Positions 34,357 to 45,694 of a DNA stretch of 64,000 nucleotides are shown piece by piece (position 1 is the stretch's first letter; each line of letters starts with the position of its first letter). The position numbers and the translations under genes are program-made. Below the pieces are notes generated by a model that did no database searches, was not told the origin of the DNA, and worked only from the letters and a program-made list of their open reading frames with translations. The DNA is from Fluviicola sp. (lineage in GTDB: Bacteria > Bacteroidota > Bacteroidia > Flavobacteriales_D > Crocinitomicaceae), in NCBI GenBank assembly GCA_002734065.2, contig NVXU02000044.1, positions 1,678 through 65,677 on the forward strand. Reading direction: 5' to 3'.

Positions 34357-37300
34357 ATGATAAAGAAAATACTCCTTCTTTTTTGCCTTCTTTTTCAGCT
34401 GCAACTCACTGCGCAAATTGACACTGACTTTTGGTTTGCTGCTCCCGAAGTATCTGCTTCAGAAGGCGATAGTCCTATAGTATTGCGGTTTTTAACTTAT
34501 AACAATCCTGTTAATAACATTACCGTTTCCTTGCCAGCAAATGGTGGTTTTACTCCAATAAATATAACACTTGGAGCCAACCAAACAGGAAGCATTGACC
34601 TGACTCCTTTTATCGCAAGTATAGAAAGTCCAGCCGCAAATGTTGTGTCAAATAATGGAATTAGAATCGTAAGTGATCAGAATATTAGTGCGTATTACGA
34701 ATTAAACAACGCTTCCAACAAAGAAATCTTTACCTTAAAAGGTTCAAAGGCCTTGGGAGACAACTTTTATACTCCTTTTCAAACTTTTTGGGATAATTCT
34801 GCGACTACACCCGCCTCTTTTTCATCCATTGACATTGTTGCAACGGAGAATAACACCACTGTTTTAATTACCCCAAGAACGAACATTACTGGTAATGCAC
34901 AAGATGTTACCTTCTCTGTAGTCCTAAATCAAGGTGAAACATACAGCGCAAGAGACATGAATGTTACCGGTGCTTCAACGCTTGCGGGCTCTATTGTTTC
35001 CTCCGATAAACCAATCGCTTTAACATTGTTTAGTGGGAGTTTGAGTAATTCTACTTGCTCTAATGCAATGGGCGATCAAATAACGTCAGAAGTTTATACA
35101 GGGAGCAAGTACATTGTGCACAAAAGCACCTCTGGAAATGACCGTGTTTATATTTTGGCCACGCAGAATGGAACGAGCATAACAATCGATAATTCTGGAA
35201 CAACAACGACCCTTATTAACTGGGGTGAAACTTACGAAGTCGCTCTGAGCGATGCTATCAATTATATCAATGCCTCAAAACCTGTTTATGTTTGGCACGC
35301 ATCCGGTTATGGGTGTGAGTTGAGTGGTGCACAAGTTCCTCCAGTATTCTGCGCAGGAACTTATTCAACTGCTTTTACCAGAACTTCAACTGACTCATTA
35401 GGTTTGCTTCTTTACACACGGACAGGATTCGAAAATCAATTCGCGCTGAATGGCAGTCCTTTGTTGATTCCAGCAGGGGCATTCTCTCCTGTGCCAGGTA
35501 CAGCGGGGACTTTCCAAGTAGCATTGATTCACTACTCAACCGCTGACGTTCCTGTAAACTCTTACAATGAGGTGACCAATTCAGGCGATATTTTTGGGCT
35601 CGGTGTGATGAATGGCAACAGCGGAAGTGGCGCTTCTTATGGTTATCTTTCAGAGTTCGCTTCCTATCCATTTGTTAGTGGTGGGGCTGACGCATCAATC
35701 TGTGCCAATACTTCTCTCAACTTAACAGGGCTTGTTGGCGGAGGCTCGGTAACTGGTGTTTGGAGCGGAACGGGATTTGGAAGCTTTGCCAACCCAACAG
35801 ACCAACTTATCAATACTTATCTACCTAGTCCTTTGGACACTATTATTTCTCCCATTGAGCTTATTCTAACAACCACAGGTCCTTGCCCTGTTGTTCGTGA
35901 TACAATTACAATTACAGTGGAGCCAGCACCAATTGTTACGGCATCTGCTGATCAATCTTTGTGTGAGAACAACTCCAATGTTCAACTTGCTGGTGATGTT
36001 ACCGGAGGCGCAACAACTGGAGTTTGGGCGTCAACAGGTACTGGCGTTTTTAGTCCAAACAACACAACTTTTAACGCAATTTACACACCTTCAGCTGCAG
36101 ACTTAACTGCTGGGAGCGTTCAATTGGTTCTAACTTCTACAAATTTTGGTTCTTGCCTAACAGAGTCTGATACGATGGAGGTTGTCTTTTCACCACCACC
36201 AATAGTTGACTCTGGTGCCGATACCTTATACTCTTGTGAGAATAATTCTTTAGTGAATTTATCTGGAACAGTTTCTGGGGCAACAACAACGGGTAAATGG
36301 CTGTCAAGCGGGACTGGTGTTTTTAGTCCTGATAACCTAAGTTTATCTGCAAGCTACCAACCTTCTCCTGGAGATATATTACTAGGAAGTGTTCTTCTTC
36401 ATTTAGAATCTACCAGTAACTTAAGTTGCATCCCTGTATTAGACAGTGTTCTTATCATTTTTACTCCAGAACCTACTGTTAACGCAGGAACAAATTTCTT
36501 GACATGTACCAACAACGCAACAATAACATTAAACGGGGCTGTTGCTGGAGCAACGACAACTGGTGTTTGGACTGGAGGTGCAGGGGTTTATTCTCCCAAC
36601 GACACTGACCTAAACGCAACCTATACACCAACGGCTGGAGAAATAACTTCTGGAAATGTCTTTTTAACATTGACAACAACTAATAATGGTACTTGCCTTT
36701 CTGTAAATGACAACGTGCAAATAAGTTTTATTGCTCCCCCCACTGCTAATTTCAATTTCACCGAAGTATGTCTCAATAATCAATCTGTATTCACTGACTT
36801 CTCTTTGTCTGGTTTTGGCAACATAAGTAATTGGACTTGGGACTTCAACGATGGAACTAACTCAAACAATCAAGATGAAAATCACGTTTACACAACTCCT
36901 GGTGCTTATAATGTGCAATTACTTGTTACAACCAATGCTGGCTGTTCAGACTCAATTACTCAATTAGTGAATGTTTGGGAAGTTCCTGTTGCTGATTTCA
37001 GTTTTTCATCTAATTGCCCTAACAATCAAATAATTGTTGACTTTGTAGACCAATCCACAACCGTTTCTGACCCAATTAATTTTTGGTATTATGATTTTGG
37101 CGGACAAGGAACCACATCGACAGAAGACCCAACACAATTATTCTCGGCAAATGGGAACTATACGATTCTACACATCGTGGGAACTGCCAATGGTTGCTTT
37201 GACACAACTTCACAGCTGCTCACAGTTTCTCCTTTACCTGTAGCAAATTTTTCATACAACTTGAACACCTCCTCTAACGTAACGGCAGATGTTAATTTTG

Positions 37301-37782
37301 TTAACTCTTCAACAGATGCTGTGACCTATACTTGGAACTTTGGAAACGGCATCAGTTCTTCAGACATTAATCCGAGCATTACTTACTTTACCAACAATAA
37401 CTACATCATCACCTTATATGCTACTAGTGCTTTAGGTTGTGTTGATAGCACTTCGCAAATTATATTTATCGATAATATTGTTCCTCCTGAAGAAATAAAC
37501 ACCTTAATTCCAAACGCTATTTCACCAAATGGAGATGGTAAAAATGATGTTTGGAAACTGGACTTCTTGAATGTTCTTTATCCCAATGCCATTGTTCAAG
37601 TTTACAACGGATGGGGACAACAGCTTTTCGAATCAGAAGGTTACGCTGTCCCTTGGGATGGAACTTACAACGGTGAGAATGTACCTGACGGCAACTATTT
37701 CTACATCATTGACATTGGAGGAACAGGACAAGAAAGTGAAATCTTCAAGGGGGTTATCCTTGTGTTAAAAAGTAAAAACTAA
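34357..37782 (+). CDS. giant adhesin-like protein with T9SS type B C-terminal domain (gliding motility-associated CTD)
   Basis: Signal peptide; ~440-aa N-terminal domain; 4 x ~88-aa modules; 3 PKD-like domains (WDFNDGT, YDFGGQG, WNFGNG); C-terminus IPNAISPNGDGKNDVW ... GNYFYIID ... GVILVLK resembles TIGR04131. Confidence 0.85.
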   Translation: MIKKILLLFCLLFQLQLTAQIDTDFWFAAPEVSASEGDSPIVLRFLTYNNPVNNITVSLPANGGFTPINITLGANQTGSIDLTPFIASIESPAANVVSNNGIRIVSDQNISAYYELNNASNKEIFTLKGSKALGDNFYTPFQTFWDNSATTPASFSSIDIVATENNTTVLITPRTNITGNAQDVTFSVVLNQGETYSARDMNVTGASTLAGSIVSSDKPIALTLFSGSLSNSTCSNAMGDQITSEVYTGSKYIVHKSTSGNDRVYILATQNGTSITIDNSGTTTTLINWGETYEVALSDAINYINASKPVYVWHASGYGCELSGAQVPPVFCAGTYSTAFTRTSTDSLGLLLYTRTGFENQFALNGSPLLIPAGAFSPVPGTAGTFQVALIHYSTADVPVNSYNEVTNSGDIFGLGVMNGNSGSGASYGYLSEFASYPFVSGGADASICANTSLNLTGLVGGGSVTGVWSGTGFGSFANPTDQLINTYLPSPLDTIISPIELILTTTGPCPVVRDTITITVEPAPIVTASADQSLCENNSNVQLAGDVTGGATTGVWASTGTGVFSPNNTTFNAIYTPSAADLTAGSVQLVLTSTNFGSCLTESDTMEVVFSPPPIVDSGADTLYSCENNSLVNLSGTVSGATTTGKWLSSGTGVFSPDNLSLSASYQPSPGDILLGSVLLHLESTSNLSCIPVLDSVLIIFTPEPTVNAGTNFLTCTNNATITLNGAVAGATTTGVWTGGAGVYSPNDTDLNATYTPTAGEITSGNVFLTLTTTNNGTCLSVNDNVQISFIAPPTANFNFTEVCLNNQSVFTDFSLSGFGNISNWTWDFNDGTNSNNQDENHVYTTPGAYNVQLLVTTNAGCSDSITQLVNVWEVPVADFSFSSNCPNNQIIVDFVDQSTTVSDPINFWYYDFGGQGTTSTEDPTQLFSANGNYTILHIVGTANGCFDTTSQLLTVSPLPVANFSYNLNTSSNVTADVNFVNSSTDAVTYTWNFGNGISSSDINPSITYFTNNNYIITLYATSALGCVDSTSQIIFIDNIVPPEEINTLIPNAISPNGDGKNDVWKLDFLNVLYPNAIVQVYNGWGQQLFESEGYAVPWDGTYNGENVPDGNYFYIIDIGGTGQESEIFKGVILVLKSKN
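35680..36745 (+). repeat. 4 tandem ~88-aa Cys-bracketed modules
   Basis: Pattern AG.D...C.N....L.G.V.GATTTG.W...GTG.FSP......A.Y.PS..D...G.V.L.LT.T....C....D...I.F...P repeated 4 times; coordinates approximate. Confidence 0.7.
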
Positions 37783-38792
37783 TGAGAATACTACTCTTCA
37801 TATTATTCAGTTTTCTTTTCACTTCTGGTGTAAATGCCCAACAACGAGCGGTATATTCTAACTTCATGATGAGTGATTACTATCACAACCCTGCCATCGC
37901 TGGAACCAAAGATGTACATGTTGCTAATGTAAGTTACAGAAATCAATGGATTGGTTTTAGCGGCGCACCATCGTTAATTATGGCAAACTTCTTTGGGTCT
38001 ATTAATAACAACACCAAAAATGGATACGGTGTGTCAGTTATCTCAGAAAGAACAGGAATTACACAGAATTCTTCCATTTACTTGAATTATGCGCAACATT
38101 TTAAGCTTTCGGAAAATTTAAAACTAGGACTCGGTGTAAAACCCGGCTTTATGCAATACAGAATAAAACTCTACGACGCTATACTTGCAGATGAAGGGGA
38201 CAATGTTCTAACTGGAAATGTTTACGCAGCAAACGCATTAGATTTAAGTGCTGGGTTTAACCTCTATTCAGAAAAGTTTTTTGTCATGGCTTCCTTTCAG
38301 CAGTTGCTTGGGAAAGGATTGCGTTTTACTTCTTACAACGAGAACTTGAGCTTTCATTACAACGCGATTCTAGGCTACAACTTCTTATTGAAGAAGAAAA
38401 AAATTCAAATTCAGCCTAGTTTAATGGCTAAATACACAAAACCAGTCCCTTTACAATACACGGGAATGATTAAAACTACATTCAACGATAAATTTTGGTT
38501 TGGATTATTATACACAGGTGATGTAAACTGGAACACGAGTCAATATCCTATTAACGCCGCTGGAATTTCATTAGGAATGACTTTCAAAGAGCGTTTTATG
38601 GTTGGTTATAGCTTTGACTACACGCTTTCTAAAATTAGTAGTTACCAATCGGGCTCCCACGAAATTATGTTGACTTTTGTGATTACCAAAAACAAGCCGA
38701 CACTTGAAGAAGAAGATGATAAATTAAATAACAGTATCATGGAGGAGATGAAGAAGAAGATGGAGGAAAAAGAGCAACAAGAAAAGAATTAA
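37782..38792 (+). CDS. PorP/SprF-family T9SS outer membrane protein (copy 1)
   Basis: AQQRAVYSNFMMSDYYHNPAIAG N-terminus typical of TIGR03519; ATG shares one base with adhesin stop (TAATG); E/K-rich C-terminal tail. Confidence 0.85.
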   Translation: MRILLFILFSFLFTSGVNAQQRAVYSNFMMSDYYHNPAIAGTKDVHVANVSYRNQWIGFSGAPSLIMANFFGSINNNTKNGYGVSVISERTGITQNSSIYLNYAQHFKLSENLKLGLGVKPGFMQYRIKLYDAILADEGDNVLTGNVYAANALDLSAGFNLYSEKFFVMASFQQLLGKGLRFTSYNENLSFHYNAILGYNFLLKKKKIQIQPSLMAKYTKPVPLQYTGMIKTTFNDKFWFGLLYTGDVNWNTSQYPINAAGISLGMTFKERFMVGYSFDYTLSKISSYQSGSHEIMLTFVITKNKPTLEEEDDKLNNSIMEEMKKKMEEKEQQEKN

Positions 38793-38802
38793 TATAAACG
38801 TT

Positions 38803-41800
38803 ATGAAACTTTTAAAATACATCATTCTTGCGCTTTTACTAAGTAATGTTAGTGCGTCAAAGCTACAAGCACAAATAGACACCTTGTTTTGGTTTGCCCC
38901 ACCATGGGTGACACCCGATCATGATAACAATGTGCAATTAGCATTTAGAATCTCAACTTTTGGAAATGCGGCGACAGTAAGAATGCAACAACCCGCTTTA
39001 TTGTTTGATACAACTTTTGTTGTTCCTGCAAACTCTTTAGCAGATGTGCCATTAGATTATTTAGTTAATTCTTTAGAAAGCACTCCTGCAGATGCAATAC
39101 TCACCTCGGGAATGAAGATTACCTCTACCGAATTAATCACAGTCGTTTATGATTTTATTTCCGATTTAATTACAATATCACCCGGCTCACCTAATAATCC
39201 TGAAACGTACTCCTTGAAAGGACAAAATGGTATGGGATTGGAATTCGTAACTCCTTTTCAAACAATCTGGAACAATCGCGCACTTTCGACGGATAGAAAT
39301 GGTGATGGAACTGTTACTCAACCTAAACAGTATTTTTCAATTGTTGCCACAGAAGACAACACTACGGTCTACATTAAACCCAACTGTGATGTTATAGGTC
39401 ACCCTGCTGATATTACTTATTCTATAGTATTGCCCTTGGCAGGGAATGTTTACACCTGCGAGAATGTTACTCTAATTACAAGTGCCCCAGGAGACAACCT
39501 GTCTGGTTCTGTTGTTTTTGCTGACAAACCCATTTCTATAACAATCAACGATGATTCTGTAAATCCAGCAGGAGGAGGAGGTTGTTTTGATTTGATGGGA
39601 GATCAAATTGTACCAACAGATGTAATCGGAAATGAATACATTGTAAACATCGGGTTCTTAAATGCCGGCTCAAACGAGTCCATTTTTATCATTCCCGCAG
39701 AAAATTTTACTACTGTGACTGTTACTGATGGTGGCACTACAACTCAAATGATGAATCAAGGAGAGACTTGGCAATATTCTATTACAGACCCTCTAACACA
39801 CATTATTGCTGATAAGCCTTTGTACCTTGTACATATGTCAGGCTATGGCTGTGAGTTAGGAATGGCTATTTTGCCTCCCCTCAATTGCGCTGGGTCTAAT
39901 GAGGTTTCTTTTGCAAGAAATAACAATCAACAATTCTTATTGAACTTACTTTGCGCTGCAGGTGACGAAGGATCATTCACATTAACAGGTCCTGGAACAG
40001 GAACTGTAACAGCTGCTTCTTTTGCTCCTGTACCAGGAACTGGTGGGGCTTGGGTGGGTGCTCAAATTGATTACACAACGGCAGAAATCCCCAGTGGCAC
40101 TCAAAACACATTGACTAACTCTGCTGGTTTTTTCTCTATGGGGGTTATTAACGGAGGACCTGCAACGGGTTGTCTGTATCATTATATGTCTTCTTTTCAC
40201 CGAAGGGTAATCACAGAAGCTGGTGTTGACACAACTTTATGTAACGGCGTTCCAACAGTTGATTTAAACGGAACCGTAACTGGAGGAACAACTACTGGTA
40301 TTTGGACCGTTCTTGATGGGACAGGAACCATTAGTAACCCAACAACTTTAGTGAATACTTATGCACCAACAACAAGTGATTATAATCAAGGTTATTTAAC
40401 CTTTGTTTTGGCATCTACAGGCAATTGTACACCTGTAACAGATACGATGCGTGTTACTTATATTCAATCACCGATTGTTGATGCTGGACTGGATGATGGT
40501 TACTGTAAGAATAACATTGGAGCCGTACCTATATCAGGTTCGGTTAACTTTGCTGCAGGAGCCAATTGGACGGGTGGAAATGGAGGTGCTTTTGGTAACC
40601 CTGGAAGTCTTGCGACAACCTACACCCCTTCACCAGCGGACATTGCACAAGACAGTGTGATTCTTGTTCTAAGTTCTGCAGGAAGCTTTTTCTCCTGCCC
40701 AAATGATAATGACACTGTTGTTATTCGTTTTACACAGGCACCCGCAGTTATTGCCGGAGCAGATGCCGTTCTTTGCTCAAACACTTCAACGATTAACCTC
40801 AACGGACTCGTTTCTGGAGCTACATCCACTGGTATTTGGACAACCAACGGGGCGGGGGCATTCTCCCCGACTTCTACTGCGCCAATTACGGACTATTTAG
40901 TAAGTTCTGCTGACACAACTGCTGGGACGATTTCTTTGGTCTTGACCTCAACAAATAATGGCAATTGTTTAGCAGAACAAGACAGTATTCAAATAACATT
41001 CTTAGCTGAGCCTTCGTTAACGATTACCTCTGCCGATTCGATTTGTTCTAACTTAGCCTTGCTAAGCCTCGACGGAACTATCTCTGTTGGCTACACCCCA
41101 ACTTGGACAACTGGAGGCTTTGGTTCTATTGTTGCTCCAAATTCTATCTCTACACAATATAATATTACGGCTGTTGATACAGCGCAAGGCTATGTTGATT
41201 TCTACTTAGAGTCAAACGCTGGAATTTGCCCAACAACTACTGACTCATTAAGAATATACTTCATTGACCCACCAGCTGTTTTTGCAGGTCTTGACCAAAA
41301 CTTTTGTGACAATGCCGTTATACAAGTAAATGGTTCTGTAACCGGAATTAGTTCCGTTGGGAACTGGACAACGTTGGGTACGGGGACTTGGAGTCCAGGG
41401 GCAAACTTCCCAGTTACAACTTACATTCCATCAGCTCTTGATATAGCAAACGGCTCTGTAGATTTAACCTTATCTTCCACAAGTGTTTTTGGGTGCGCTC
41501 CGAATAGCGACGTCGTTACGATAACATTCTTAAGCTCTCCAACGGCTGATTTCTCCGCAACAATGGCCTGTGCGGGACAGAACACTGTCTTTACAGATGG
41601 TTCAACTGGTTCTGTCACTAATTGGGATTGGGATTTTGGAGATGCGGATACTTCAATCGTTTCTAACCCAACGCACACTTATACGGGGTCTGGTAATTAC
41701 ACAACAACATTGATTGCTTATTCTAGCAATGGTTGTAGTGACACTACTCAACAAGTAATAGTTGTTAATCCTGTTCCTATTGCTGATTTTTCGCCAACAG

Positions 41801-42552
41801 CAGCATGTGAAAACATTCCCATTAACTTAACAGACCTTTCTTTTATTTCTGGAGGATTAATTAATTCTTGGATGTATGACTTTGGAGGCGGTGCATCAAG
41901 CACAGATCAACATCCAACTTACACTTTTACTGGTTCTGGCTTGCAACAAGTGACCCTCACTGTTACTTCTACGCTAGGTTGTGTAGACGACACCACAATT
42001 AATTTCTCAATAACACCTGCGCCAATAGCAGATTTTACATTTACGCCAGACCAAGCAATTGTTCAAGAACAAGTAAACTTTACAGACATATCTGTTGGAA
42101 ATGGAATCTATCAATGGTTGTGGGAGTTTGGTGATGGACAAGGAAACAACGTGCAGAACCCCGTCCATTCTTTCAATGACGGCGGGACTTTTGATGTCAT
42201 GCTCATTATTACGGATGCAAACGGATGCATTGATACAGCTGTTCATTCTATTTTAATAGGATTGCCTCCTGTTTTACCGACTGGGTTTACGCCAAACGGA
42301 GATGGAGAGAATGACATTTTCTATATACGGGGCGGTCCTTTCGAAACCGTTTCTTTTAATGTGTATAATAAATGGGGAGAATTGATTTTCTCTGCCACAG
42401 AAGCTGATTTTATAACAGACTGGAGTGATTTAGGCTGGGACGGAACCTTTCAAGGTGAACCTGTTCCTCTTGGTGTTTATACATGGACATTTGTTGTGGA
42501 ACAAGGTCGAGAAATTCATAAAAAAACGGGTGACGTTACCCTAATGCGTTAA
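38803..42552 (+). CDS. second giant adhesin-like protein with T9SS type B C-terminal domain (paralogue of 34357..37782)
   Basis: Same architecture: signal peptide, homologous N-terminal domain (DTLFWFAPPW, SGYGCELGMAILPPLNCAG), 5 x ~89-aa modules, 3 PKD-like domains, CTD PTGFTPNGDGENDIF ... GVYTWTFVV ... GDVTLMR. Confidence 0.85.
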   Translation: MKLLKYIILALLLSNVSASKLQAQIDTLFWFAPPWVTPDHDNNVQLAFRISTFGNAATVRMQQPALLFDTTFVVPANSLADVPLDYLVNSLESTPADAILTSGMKITSTELITVVYDFISDLITISPGSPNNPETYSLKGQNGMGLEFVTPFQTIWNNRALSTDRNGDGTVTQPKQYFSIVATEDNTTVYIKPNCDVIGHPADITYSIVLPLAGNVYTCENVTLITSAPGDNLSGSVVFADKPISITINDDSVNPAGGGGCFDLMGDQIVPTDVIGNEYIVNIGFLNAGSNESIFIIPAENFTTVTVTDGGTTTQMMNQGETWQYSITDPLTHIIADKPLYLVHMSGYGCELGMAILPPLNCAGSNEVSFARNNNQQFLLNLLCAAGDEGSFTLTGPGTGTVTAASFAPVPGTGGAWVGAQIDYTTAEIPSGTQNTLTNSAGFFSMGVINGGPATGCLYHYMSSFHRRVITEAGVDTTLCNGVPTVDLNGTVTGGTTTGIWTVLDGTGTISNPTTLVNTYAPTTSDYNQGYLTFVLASTGNCTPVTDTMRVTYIQSPIVDAGLDDGYCKNNIGAVPISGSVNFAAGANWTGGNGGAFGNPGSLATTYTPSPADIAQDSVILVLSSAGSFFSCPNDNDTVVIRFTQAPAVIAGADAVLCSNTSTINLNGLVSGATSTGIWTTNGAGAFSPTSTAPITDYLVSSADTTAGTISLVLTSTNNGNCLAEQDSIQITFLAEPSLTITSADSICSNLALLSLDGTISVGYTPTWTTGGFGSIVAPNSISTQYNITAVDTAQGYVDFYLESNAGICPTTTDSLRIYFIDPPAVFAGLDQNFCDNAVIQVNGSVTGISSVGNWTTLGTGTWSPGANFPVTTYIPSALDIANGSVDLTLSSTSVFGCAPNSDVVTITFLSSPTADFSATMACAGQNTVFTDGSTGSVTNWDWDFGDADTSIVSNPTHTYTGSGNYTTTLIAYSSNGCSDTTQQVIVVNPVPIADFSPTAACENIPINLTDLSFISGGLINSWMYDFGGGASSTDQHPTYTFTGSGLQQVTLTVTSTLGCVDDTTINFSITPAPIADFTFTPDQAIVQEQVNFTDISVGNGIYQWLWEFGDGQGNNVQNPVHSFNDGGTFDVMLIITDANGCIDTAVHSILIGLPPVLPTGFTPNGDGENDIFYIRGGPFETVSFNVYNKWGELIFSATEADFITDWSDLGWDGTFQGEPVPLGVYTWTFVVEQGREIHKKTGDVTLMR
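40216..41550 (+). repeat. 5 tandem ~89-aa Cys-bracketed modules
   Basis: Same module pattern as 35680..36745; coordinates approximate. Confidence 0.7.
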
Positions 42553-42555
42553 TGT

Positions 42556-43575
42556 ATGATTAAAAGAATTACTCTCATAGCAATTTTCTTTTTAGGTGTT
42601 CATGCAGCAAATGCACAGGACGCCCACTTGTCGTTGTATGATGCTGCACCCCTCTCTTTAAACCCCGCAATGACGGGAGTTTTTGAAGGTGACTGGAGGT
42701 TGCATGGCCAATACCGAACGCAATGGAAGTCCGTTAATTTTAAACCTTACCAAACAGGGTTAATCAGTTTTGATATGTCCAAAAAGAAATGGGGTTTTGG
42801 TATTCAAATTTCTAACTTTAGAGCAGGGCAAGGAAATTATAACGCTCTTCAAGGTTCTGTTTCTGCTGCTTATACTACTTCTTTAGACAGAAGGAAACAC
42901 CACAATTTATCCTTTGGATTACAGGCTGGTGTGACACAAAAATCAATAGAATACCAGCTTTTAACCTATAATAACCAATACACAACTATTGATGGCGGTG
43001 GTTTCAATCAAGATTTAGGCTCTTTGGAGAATTTTAACGGGCAATCTGTTATTTTGCCAGTCACAAATGTCGGTTTACTCTATTTCTTTGCGAAACAAGA
43101 GAGTAGGCTTAATCCATTTATTGGTCTTTCTGCTTTTAATTTGTTAGAGCCTAAAGAATCTCTTTACGGTATCGATAATCGATTGCCTATGCGTTTTTAT
43201 GGGCACTTTGGTACGCGAATTAATGTTACGGAGTTGTTCTATTTAATTCCTAAGTTATTAGTGATGAATCAAGGTAAATTCTGGGAGCAAACTTATGCGT
43301 TAGATGCCGGTTATTACCTCAAAAACAATGACTTTTATCTTTTGGGAGGAGTAATTGTTCGTTCTGTTGGAGATGTTGCAAATACCTTTGGATCCGATGC
43401 TATGATTATTTCGATAGGAGCAAAAATGGAAAACATTGTTGCCAAAATTGCCTACGATGTTAATGTTTCAAAGTTGTCAAGATTTACCGCTGGAAAAGGA
43501 GGGTTTGAGGTCTCCGTAACTTATACACATCAGAAGAAGAAACCTCGAACAGAGAAAATTTGTCCACGACTTTAA
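42556..43575 (+). CDS. PorP/SprF-family T9SS outer membrane protein (copy 2)
   Basis: AQDAHLSLYDAAPLSLNPAMTG N-terminus; starts 3 nt after adhesin stop. Confidence 0.85.
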   Translation: MIKRITLIAIFFLGVHAANAQDAHLSLYDAAPLSLNPAMTGVFEGDWRLHGQYRTQWKSVNFKPYQTGLISFDMSKKKWGFGIQISNFRAGQGNYNALQGSVSAAYTTSLDRRKHHNLSFGLQAGVTQKSIEYQLLTYNNQYTTIDGGGFNQDLGSLENFNGQSVILPVTNVGLLYFFAKQESRLNPFIGLSAFNLLEPKESLYGIDNRLPMRFYGHFGTRINVTELFYLIPKLLVMNQGKFWEQTYALDAGYYLKNNDFYLLGGVIVRSVGDVANTFGSDAMIISIGAKMENIVAKIAYDVNVSKLSRFTAGKGGFEVSVTYTHQKKKPRTEKICPRL

Positions 43576-43585
43576 GAAGAATTTC

Positions 43586-45694
43586 ATGATAAAAAAAATC
43601 ATCATATTTGTTTTACTAGCGCTCCCTATGGTTGTGCAAAGTCAATCCAGAAAGGTGTGGATAAACAATGCCGACAACTTTTACGAAAAAGAAGACTTTC
43701 ACAATGCACTGATTAATTATAAATTAGCTTTGAGTGATTCTTCAGGCTTATCAATGATGGTCCTTCCTTATGAAGTTGACATTACAAAACAGAAGTTAAG
43801 TGAAAAAGGCAAAGAAATTGATACCGCTCGACAGGTTCCGTTGCGAGATTATTTAGAACATCAAATTGCTTCTTGTTACTTACAGACTTACGACTACAAA
43901 AAAGCCGTTGAACAGTTTGAAAAAACATCCACTTTTGAATCTTATCCCGAGGATGTCTATCACTTCGCAGTAGCCCAAATGAATGTTGATCAGCATGAAA
44001 ATGCAATCGTTAACTTCGAGAGATACATCAGCTCCGACCATTACAATGACTCCTTACTTAGAAGTGCTCAGCTTTCCGTTACGGGTTGCAAATACGCAAT
44101 GAACAGTGAAAATGTGAAAGAAAAAGTGGCAGTTTGGAGAGCAGACACCAACGTATTTAACAAAGGGTCCTCTTCTTTTGCTACTATGTTCTTCGGAAGT
44201 GAAGAAAAAATTCTATTCACAAGCGCTCGAGATGGTGGCGTAATTTTAGATCCTGAAAAGCAAGATTCTAAGTTCATTTTAGACCTCTACTGGACTCAAA
44301 AATCAGGGGAAAATGACTGGTCAGAAGCAAAAAACTTTGGAAGACCGTTGAATACTGCTCAGCATGATGCTTCAGGCACACTGAGTAAGAATGACATTAT
44401 TTACTACACTCGCTGGAGTGATGCTGACAGAAAAGATAAGAATATCTATTTGGCGAGAATGGTCAATTTAAAGTTCTATGAGTCTTTTAAACTTCCTGAA
44501 GCGGTTAATGTTCCGGGCTATAAAAGTGTTAACCCTTTCGTTACTAAAAGCGGTAAATGGCTTTACTTTTCAAGCAATCGACCAGGCGGTGAAGGAGGTA
44601 TGGACATCTGGAAAATAGAATTGAATGAATCTGGCAACGTAATCAACGACGCCATTAATTTAGGGCGACCCATTAATTCAGAATTAAATGAAGTAACTCC
44701 TTTCTATCACCAGGTTTCTTCTACCCTGTTTTTTAGTTCTAACGGACACAATTCCATTGGGGGCTTAGATATTTACAAAGCTTCCTACAATAGACGTAAC
44801 AAGGCTTTCGATGACCCCATTAACTTAGGAATGCCTATTAACTCAAGCAAAGACGATGCTTATTTAATCTGGGATGACAACCTAAAAAACGGTTTCTTTT
44901 CGAGTGATAGAGAACCTTGCGAAAACGGGCATTGCTACGATATCTATCAGGTTAGCAATGAGCCAATAATAATTACCTTGAGCGGTTATGCTTTTAATGG
45001 AGAAACGGATGAAGTTCTACCAAACACCAACCTTGCATTTAAAGATATCGATTTTGTCTTCGAAACTTTTGATCTTAAAACGGATGAAGATGGTTTTTAC
45101 AGTATTGAATTGACTCAGAATCAAGAGATTTTTATTAAAGCAACTCGACCTTCATTCTTTGCCGATGCAGCATCGGTAAACACGAAATCTATCACAGAGT
45201 CAACAAAATTAACGCAGGACTTTTTCTTAAATCCTATTCCAACAGGTGAAATTGAAATTGAAGGGATTGAATACGATTTTGACAAGGCAACTTTGCGTCC
45301 TTCTTCAAAAGAAATTCTAGATAAACTGGTAGAGTTCTTAGAGTTGAATAATAACCTTGTGATTGAAATTAATTCTCACACAGATGCTCGAGGAAGTGAC
45401 AAATACAACCAGCGCCTTTCTCAAAGAAGAGCAAAATCATGTGTTGATTACCTGATTAAGAGTGGAATTAGCAAAACGAGGTTGAAAGCAATCGGCTATG
45501 GTGAGTCAGAACCAAACGTGTTGAAAGGTGCAAACAAAAAACCTGTATTGGATGATAAAGGCAAACGAATCTACTTGACTGAAGATGTTATTAAAGCAGC
45601 AGAATCAGAAGAACTAAGAGAAGAGTATCATCAGCGCAATAGAAGAACTTCATTTAAAGTTGTTGGCGAAGGATTTAATTTGGAAAGCAATTAG
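43586..45694 (+). CDS. PorE-like multidomain OmpA-family protein (TPR + PD40 beta-propeller + carboxypeptidase-regulatory-like + OmpA_C)
   Basis: TPR-like helices near N-terminus; PD40-type repeats (FSSNRPGGEGGMDIW, FFSSNGHNSIGGLDIY, FFSSDRE); CRD-like segment ITLSGYAFNGETDEVLPNT...DEDGFYSIEL; OmpA_C (NSHTDARGSDKYNQRLSQRRA). Confidence 0.75.
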   Translation: MIKKIIIFVLLALPMVVQSQSRKVWINNADNFYEKEDFHNALINYKLALSDSSGLSMMVLPYEVDITKQKLSEKGKEIDTARQVPLRDYLEHQIASCYLQTYDYKKAVEQFEKTSTFESYPEDVYHFAVAQMNVDQHENAIVNFERYISSDHYNDSLLRSAQLSVTGCKYAMNSENVKEKVAVWRADTNVFNKGSSSFATMFFGSEEKILFTSARDGGVILDPEKQDSKFILDLYWTQKSGENDWSEAKNFGRPLNTAQHDASGTLSKNDIIYYTRWSDADRKDKNIYLARMVNLKFYESFKLPEAVNVPGYKSVNPFVTKSGKWLYFSSNRPGGEGGMDIWKIELNESGNVINDAINLGRPINSELNEVTPFYHQVSSTLFFSSNGHNSIGGLDIYKASYNRRNKAFDDPINLGMPINSSKDDAYLIWDDNLKNGFFSSDREPCENGHCYDIYQVSNEPIIITLSGYAFNGETDEVLPNTNLAFKDIDFVFETFDLKTDEDGFYSIELTQNQEIFIKATRPSFFADAASVNTKSITESTKLTQDFFLNPIPTGEIEIEGIEYDFDKATLRPSSKEILDKLVEFLELNNNLVIEINSHTDARGSDKYNQRLSQRRAKSCVDYLIKSGISKTRLKAIGYGESEPNVLKGANKKPVLDDKGKRIYLTEDVIKAAESEELREEYHQRNRRTSFKVVGEGFNLESN

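Follow-up and report, generated by a model that had tools for sequence, protein, structure and literature searches.

A PorE-like protein without a lipobox as the probable wall anchor of a conserved type B adhesin module in Fluviicola

The subject of this report is a gene of Fluviicola sp. (Bacteroidota, Crocinitomicaceae) situated at positions 43586-45694 of the forward strand of a stretch of DNA of 64,000 nucleotides (assembly GCA_002734065.2, contig NVXU02000044.1, positions 1,678 to 65,677), which is called here the window. Its product is probably a PorE-like periplasmic bridging protein of a type 9 secretion system (T9SS) module devoted to type B cargo, which has no lipid anchor and fixes two adhesins to the cell wall through PorP/SprF-like barrels. 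The domain architecture of the protein, its homology to PorE, its type I signal, the conservation of its peptidoglycan-binding residues, the tight packing of the operon and the conserved synteny are all direct observations. Both the absence of a lipobox and the location of the gene within an operon of cargo have already been published for this class of proteins in Flavobacterium johnsoniae, so that this interpretation is right but not new.

The open reading frame (ORF) at 43586-45694 (+) is intact and encodes 702 residues (protein P0001). Its start is the first ATG, GTG or TTG codon that follows an in-frame stop at 43517-43519. The 22 codons between this stop and the ATG (LIHIRRRNLEQRKFVHDFKKNF) contain neither a start codon nor a cysteine and, because of that, a lipobox cannot be gained by correcting the start. 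An upstream or alternative start adding a lipobox, the possibility that a first-pass annotation of the window had raised against its own proposal, is therefore excluded. The N-terminus (MIKKIIIFVLLALPMVVQSQS) is composed of a basic n-region with two lysines, a hydrophobic core of 13 residues, small residues at positions -3 (V17) and -1 (S19), and then Q20. There is no cysteine at the cleavage region, the first one of the whole protein being residue 97. The type of signal peptide was judged by rules applied to this residue pattern, and the resulting feature is as follows.

43586..43642, forward strand: type I (signal peptidase I) signal peptide, residues 1-19, with predicted cleavage between S19 and Q20 and no lipobox cysteine (on the basis of the sequence, the orthologue alignment and the Q-rule of PMC5837995).

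Conservation among orthologues agrees with this prediction. A search in a collection of 5.8 billion proteins returned more than 120 clusters with 60-89% identity to the 702-residue protein; those with a name belong to Crocinitomicaceae, Fluviicola and other metagenome-assembled genomes of Flavobacteriales, and their annotation is just "OmpA family protein". A complete leader followed by Q[SA][RK] is present in 109 of the 120 listed orthologues, the remaining 11 being gene calls truncated at the N-terminus. In the complete leaders, position -1 is occupied by S, G, N, T or A and position -3 by A, G, S, T or V (L in one of them). None of the 109 full-length orthologues has a cysteine at the cleavage site, although one carries a cysteine within a few residues of it, and Q20 is invariant in the orthologue alignment A1. 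The "Q-rule" of Bacteroidota (PMC5837995, PMC10653852) places a glutamine at position +1 of signal peptidase I cleavage, and the cleavage predicted before the invariant Q20 fits this rule. The residue pattern thus supports a leader that is positively of the signal peptidase I type, beyond the mere absence of cysteine, and a protein that would not be a lipoprotein. Two claims of the first-pass annotation, namely a signal peptide devoid of cysteine at the cleavage region and a PorE paralogue that is soluble in the periplasm or anchored in some other way, are borne out by the type I leader, the conserved glutamine at +1, the lack of a cysteine at the site in the 109 orthologues and the lack of any other start.

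Some orthologues have a cysteine in the hydrophobic region of the leader (e.g. MKRILLLIVCLIG...), which was considered as a cryptic lipobox. This candidate was rejected, since the cysteine lies at position 10-14 and is followed by more hydrophobic residues and then by a small-x-small site before Q.

Downstream of the signal peptide the protein can be divided into four regions, which are arranged in the order known for PorE:

43649..44110, forward strand: helical TPR-like region, residues ~22-175 (helices in the AlphaFold2 model; weak matches to TPR_8, TPR_2 and ANAPC3; TPR Pfam families recorded for orthologues).

44126..44959, forward strand: PD40-type beta-propeller, residues ~181-458, with five blades counted (PD40 Pfam match; ~19 strands in the AlphaFold2 model; five-bladed propellers among the Foldseek matches).

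44972..45235, forward strand: putative carboxypeptidase-regulatory-like beta-sandwich, residues ~463-550 (seven strands modelled with a predicted local distance difference test score, pLDDT, of ~90; sub-threshold matches to PF13620 and PF13715, the latter recorded for orthologues P0015 and P0018).

45257..45670, forward strand: OmpA_C-like peptidoglycan-binding domain, extended at its C-terminus in the manner of PorE, residues ~558-695 (PF00691; match to the structure 6TOP).

Pfam detects OmpA (PF00691) at residues 563-645 (2.6e-21) and PD40 at 316-342 (3.3e-11), and a scan restricted to the propeller region reveals a second stretch of PD40. Matches to TPR_8, TPR_2 and ANAPC3 (E ~1e-4) and to the CarboxypepD_reg families PF13620 and PF13715 (E 0.05-0.13) are below threshold but lie at the expected positions. 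The NCBIfam model of PorE, T9SS_PorE (NF052230), aligns nearly end to end at 346 bits, with residues 82-693 of the protein covering positions 51-647 of the 648 in the model. In an AlphaFold2 model computed from 45 orthologues (mean pLDDT 77, predicted template modelling score 0.63), helices extend up to about residue 172, ~19 beta-strands lie between 181 and 458, residues 463-548 form a sandwich of seven strands (pLDDT ~90), and an alpha/beta OmpA_C fold occupies 556-695. When this model was compared with the PDB by Foldseek, the top match was the C-terminal domain of Porphyromonas gingivalis PorE (6TOP), with 44% identity and a target TM-score of 0.72, followed by other OmpA_C domains; five-bladed propellers match the middle part. 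Five PD40-like motifs were counted, near residues 199-236, 262-291, 315-343, 370-398 and 423-456, in agreement with the description of PorE as a five-bladed protein (PMC5053529, PMC7192894).

These results confirm the architecture read previously from the letters of the window. The TPR-like helices and the carboxypeptidase-regulatory-like sandwich are recovered in the AlphaFold2 model and, weakly, by Pfam; the OmpA_C domain is recovered by AlphaFold2, Pfam and Foldseek; the "at least four" PD40-type blades are five; and the PorE domain order holds in the near end-to-end match to NF052230 and in the four modelled domains. The loss of either the beta-propeller or the OmpA_C domain would have contradicted that reading, and both domains are present; the comparison with the PorE structure that had been suggested as a check gave 6TOP as the best match.

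A conserved beta-hairpin insert (window 43748-43840, residues ~55-85; pLDDT 49-65) interrupts the TPR-like helices. Its residues P61 and Y62 are invariant, and E63, V84 and P85 are nearly so. This insert is N-terminal to the part of the protein aligned by the PorE hidden Markov model (HMM).

The OmpA_C domain is also the region of closest similarity to PorE at the level of sequence, since 6TOP is the top PDB match by sequence as well (9.5e-26, 44% identity). In this alignment D600, N608 and R615 correspond to D576, N584 and R591 of PorE, whose side chains bind the meso-diaminopimelate (meso-DAP) stem peptide of peptidoglycan (PMC7192894). The three residues are all invariant in the 45 orthologues of alignment A1.

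The genome to which the window belongs (3.49 Mb, 99.98% complete) contains ~20 PorP/SprF genes, ~38 proteins whose C-terminal domain (CTD) is of type B and ~14 PorE-like ORFs, ~9 of them with all four domains. Contigs C31 (that of the window), C21, C55, C24, C6 and C53 carry the six PorE-like genes that directly follow a PorP gene, and none of the six encodes a lipobox. The lone copy with a lipobox, C56:7532-9550(+) (MKYLVFILSLLIFASC, LIFASC), is not adjacent to PorP; it scores higher with the CHU_0125 family (284 bits) than with PorE (263 bits) and is placed in the other half of the family tree.

The same pattern was found in a comparison sample of 60 other high-quality Bacteroidota genomes (61 with that of the window). 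The single match above the PorE cut-off in the 60 genomes (946 bits) carries the lipobox LLLFSC, which is of the classical kind, and is not adjoined by PorP. None of the 12 PorE-like proteins encoded beside a PorP gene and a type B CTD gene in these genomes carries a canonical lipobox; all 12 have leaders of the signal peptidase I type, most of which end in A or S before a Q at the cleavage site. Taking together the six copies of the window's genome and the 12 sampled ones, no canonical lipobox was found among ~18 PorP-adjacent PorE-like proteins.

A maximum-likelihood tree of 36 full-length members divides the family into two halves (support 100/99). The CHU_0125-like lipoprotein belongs to one half, in which no member is PorP-adjacent; the bona fide lipoprotein PorE, all 15 PorP-adjacent members and the clade of the window protein make up or lie within the other. 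The count and phylogeny of paralogues, which had been proposed as a further check, thus gave ~14 ORFs and a position of the window protein in the half of true PorE.

A gene fusion of the same genome provides evidence of another kind. C54:21213-22628(+) encodes 471 residues in which a PorP_SprF barrel (22-290, 208 bits) is joined to an OmpA peptidoglycan-binding domain (368-462, 80 bits), and it is located directly downstream of the type B CTD gene C54:17142-21209. From its sequence, this protein is a fusion of the Rosetta-stone type that would bypass a separate PorE-like protein, and it suggests independently that coupling to peptidoglycan is what PorP-like barrels are meant for. The same contig encodes a protein of 2095 residues (C54:86548-92835, forward strand) whose N-terminus resembles PorE-like proteins in their TPR region and part of their propeller.

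The gene under study is the last of five consecutive genes of the same strand:

34357..37782, forward strand: adhesin 1, 1141 residues, with a signal peptide, an IgGFc_binding-type N-terminal domain, PKD repeats and a type B T9SS CTD (CHU_C / TIGR04131), as detected by Pfam and NCBIfam.

37782..38792, forward strand: PorP/SprF-like outer-membrane barrel 1, 336 residues (PF11751, 208 bits; TIGR03519, 210 bits), overlapping the stop of adhesin 1 by 1 nucleotide.

38803..42552, forward strand: adhesin 2, 1249 residues, built in the same way as adhesin 1, type B CTD included.

42556..43575, forward strand: PorP/SprF-like barrel 2, 339 residues (PF11751, 107 bits; TIGR03519, 150 bits).

43586..45694, forward strand: PorE-like protein, 702 residues, the last gene of the module (NCBIfam, AlphaFold2, Foldseek).

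The successive junctions measure -1 (an overlap), 10, 3 and 10 nucleotides, and the downstream neighbour of the PorE-like gene is convergent. A synteny scan limited to one genome per species yielded 80 loci in which the PorE-like protein is 43-89% identical; these related genomes are not independent of one another. The order CTD protein, PorP, CTD protein, PorP, PorE-like protein is present in 56 of the 57 loci with at least 9.3 kb of upstream sequence, and in the single exception the adhesin gene is split. PorP is directly upstream in 21 of the 23 shorter loci, which makes 77 of 80 overall. The searches that were run found this orthologue group in Crocinitomicaceae-type Flavobacteriales alone and, from its sequence conservation, the five-gene module appears as a conserved unit of this lineage. 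The first-pass annotation had considered that the protein might be dedicated to the two upstream adhesin/PorP pairs, and this is supported by genomic evidence, namely intergenic gaps of at most 10 nucleotides and an order kept in 56 of 57 genomes.

Identity between the two adhesins is 34% across more than 1000 residues, whereas the two PorP barrels are barely alignable (25% identity over 146 residues, E 0.018); within the module, the barrels are thus far more diverged than their cargo. These values indicate that the pairing is old. A recent tandem duplication of the adhesin/PorP pairs is ruled out by them, and it is also countered by the retention of the double arrangement down to loci in which the PorE-like protein is only ~45% identical.

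Additional genes of these types are found next to the module in other genomes. For instance, many Fluviicola loci (L052-L058, L061, L063-L065, L083, L089) have a second, distant PorE-like gene (~685 residues, ~145 bits to the orthologue HMM), located on the reverse strand at ~12.4-14.8 kb, convergent with the module and immediately downstream of it; this gene is absent at that position in the window. A further cassette of a type B CTD gene and a PorP gene lies a few kb downstream of the module in L049 (15252-21600) and in L079-L082 and L087 (~16.5-22 kb), and that of L049 also includes a PorE-like gene.

The function proposed here is modelled on complexes described in other Bacteroidota. PG1058/PorE was defined by Heath et al. 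(2016) as a predicted lipoprotein of four domains, and some Bacteroidetes species were noted to have 2-13 homologues each (PMC5053529). Trinh et al. (2020) reported more than 20 PorE homologues in F. johnsoniae, which have signal peptides and conserved peptidoglycan-binding residues and none of which is predicted to be a lipoprotein (PMC7192894). Gorasia et al. (2022) described a PorE-PorP-PG1035 complex in P. gingivalis in which PorE is stabilised by PorP, found that six porP-like genes of F. johnsoniae adjoin porE-like genes, and postulated that type B cargo which is not mobile is secured to the wall by PorP-PorE-like complexes (PMC9143113). More recently, Paillat et al. (2025) described five operons composed of a type B substrate, an SprF-like and a PorE-like gene, and proposed a static Fjoh_3952/Fjoh_3951/Fjoh_3950 complex (PMC12618676).

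By analogy with PorE-PorP-PG1035 of P. gingivalis and with Fjoh_3950-3952 of F. johnsoniae, from which the contacts between the proteins and the role of static anchor are inferred, the window protein would be exported by Sec and then cut by signal peptidase I between S19 and Q20. The new N-terminal Gln20 would probably be cyclised to pyroglutamate, as happens in most signal peptidase I substrates of Bacteroidota, and a cut at this site would therefore leave the mature protein without a lipid anchor. As a free periplasmic protein, it would bind the meso-DAP stem peptide of peptidoglycan through its C-terminal OmpA_C domain. Its N-terminal TPR region and beta-propeller would dock, on the periplasmic side, on either or both of the PorP/SprF-like barrels encoded upstream. 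The barrels would in turn hold the type B CTDs of both large adhesins at the cell surface. The resulting chain would run from the adhesin to the PorP-like barrel, the PorE-like protein and the cell wall, the link with the outer membrane being provided by the barrel in place of an acyl chain, and the adhesins would be immobile instead of travelling on the gliding track.

The conserved 2:2:1 layout could also be understood as a bivalent anchor, in which the TPR region and the propeller each dock a different PorP barrel and so unite the two adhesins in one wall-fixed surface complex. We regard this elaboration as unlikely. In F. johnsoniae and P. gingivalis, whose modules are 1:1:1, no architecture of this kind has been described.

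Several observations weigh against a PorE-like wall anchor. By the NCBIfam cut-offs the protein falls outside both candidate families, since it scores 346 bits where the curated PorE cut-off is 600, and 275 bits with the CHU_0125 family model (NF053607), whose cut-off is 620. The PorE model is evidently narrow: its cut-off is exceeded in only one of the 61 sampled Bacteroidota genomes, and no copy in the window's genome reaches it; a model this narrow cannot decide membership of the family outside Bacteroidales. The assignments of the TPR and carboxypeptidase-regulatory-like regions rest on sub-threshold Pfam matches, a structural model of moderate confidence and homology to PorE along the full length. 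A scan of the operon for promoters and terminators gave fewer matches than shuffled sequence and no terminator after the PorE-like gene. Finally, the PorP-PG1035 complex of P. gingivalis still forms without PorE (PMC9143113), which means that the anchor may be dispensable for secretion or surface display as such.

A different explanation would be that this gene encodes the housekeeping PorE of the T9SS of this organism, needed for general secretion as in P. gingivalis, where PorE is essential for T9SS function (PMC5053529), and that its adjacency to cargo genes is coincidental. When true PorE was used as a query in blastp, the window protein (233 bits, ~29% identical overall) and C58:18594-20723(+) (253 bits) were the two best matches of the genome, and their HMM scores are also close (~346 and ~368). 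However, the better of the two is the C58 copy, which is the best match of this genome to the PorE model (368-369 bits, full length) and has no link to PorP or cargo genes. From its sequence it is a candidate for the housekeeping PorE which, having no lipobox either (MKFNTILLIAFLFFGYQSNAQ), would then also be non-lipidated. The gene of the window, by contrast, is fixed in a five-gene cargo module in 56 of 57 genomes, and the presence of at least six PorP-linked copies in the genome argues for module-specific roles. A housekeeping function is therefore considered improbable.

It is very improbable that the protein acts instead as a Pal-like or CHU_0125-like factor of general outer-membrane integrity, tethering the outer membrane to peptidoglycan with no relation to the adjacent cargo. 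Although the combination of an OmpA_C domain and a PD40 propeller is reminiscent of TolB/Pal and there is a match to NF053607, its 275 bits are far under the cut-off of 620 and under the score of the protein itself with PorE. CHU_0125-like copies, including the only lipoprotein copy of the genome (C56), are placed in the other, well-separated half of the tree. Moreover, without a lipid anchor or a barrel of its own, the protein would require a partner to tether the outer membrane. Just as hard to credit is a free periplasmic chaperone or adaptor that escorts adhesins or PorP barrels before or during export without any stable wall anchor: the lack of a membrane anchor, the TPR and propeller scaffolds and the PorE-PG1035 cross-links of P. 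gingivalis, which possibly arise before secretion (PMC9143113), would suit it, but a wall-bound state is favoured by the PorE-type OmpA_C domain and its invariant triad of peptidoglycan-binding residues, and the PorP-OmpA_C fusion points to a stable coupling between barrel and wall.

The PorE-like wall anchor thus confirms and extends a known pattern, in which the PorE-family proteins encoded in type B cargo operons of Flavobacteriales are systematically non-lipidated; this implies that they reach the outer membrane solely via their PorP/SprF-like partner. The strict five-gene module and the PorP-OmpA_C fusion provide comparative support for the published wall-fixing of type B adhesins through PorP and PorE-like proteins. 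What sets the case apart, if only mildly, is that a single PorE-like gene stands for two PorP/adhesin pairs that have diverged, within a five-gene module whose conservation is strict. The finding opens no new question; its value is that of annotation, since genes of this kind are now labelled just "OmpA family protein", and that of a clean candidate module in which the published model can be tested.

With respect to known systems, the layout of TPR region, propeller and OmpA_C domain is shared with the CHU_0125 family of Cytophaga hutchinsonii (Pal-like OmpA proteins, NF053607). The window protein differs from this family in its score below the cut-off of 620 and its position in the opposite half of the tree, and the CHU_0125-like copy of its genome (C56) is a lipoprotein without a link to PorP. 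The window protein has the same four-domain order as PorE of P. gingivalis (PG1058 / PGN_1296), an OmpA_C domain 44% identical and an identical Asp/Asn/Arg triad; P. gingivalis PorE binds PorP, which in turn binds a type B CTD protein (PMC5053529, PMC7192894, PMC9143113). However, PorE of P. gingivalis bears a type II signal and is a lipoprotein, is encoded by a single-copy gene that is not beside porP or its cargo, and is required for general T9SS function. A third close system is the Fjoh_3950 type of F. johnsoniae, for which, by its published description, a static role in cell-wall anchoring has been proposed (PMC7192894, PMC9143113, PMC12618676). In both cases the gene lies directly downstream of PorP/SprF-like and type B cargo genes, and the protein has a signal peptide, no lipobox and conserved peptidoglycan-binding residues. 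The Fluviicola gene differs from that of F. johnsoniae in being preceded by two adhesin/PorP pairs, where the latter has one, and in the strong divergence between its two PorP proteins.

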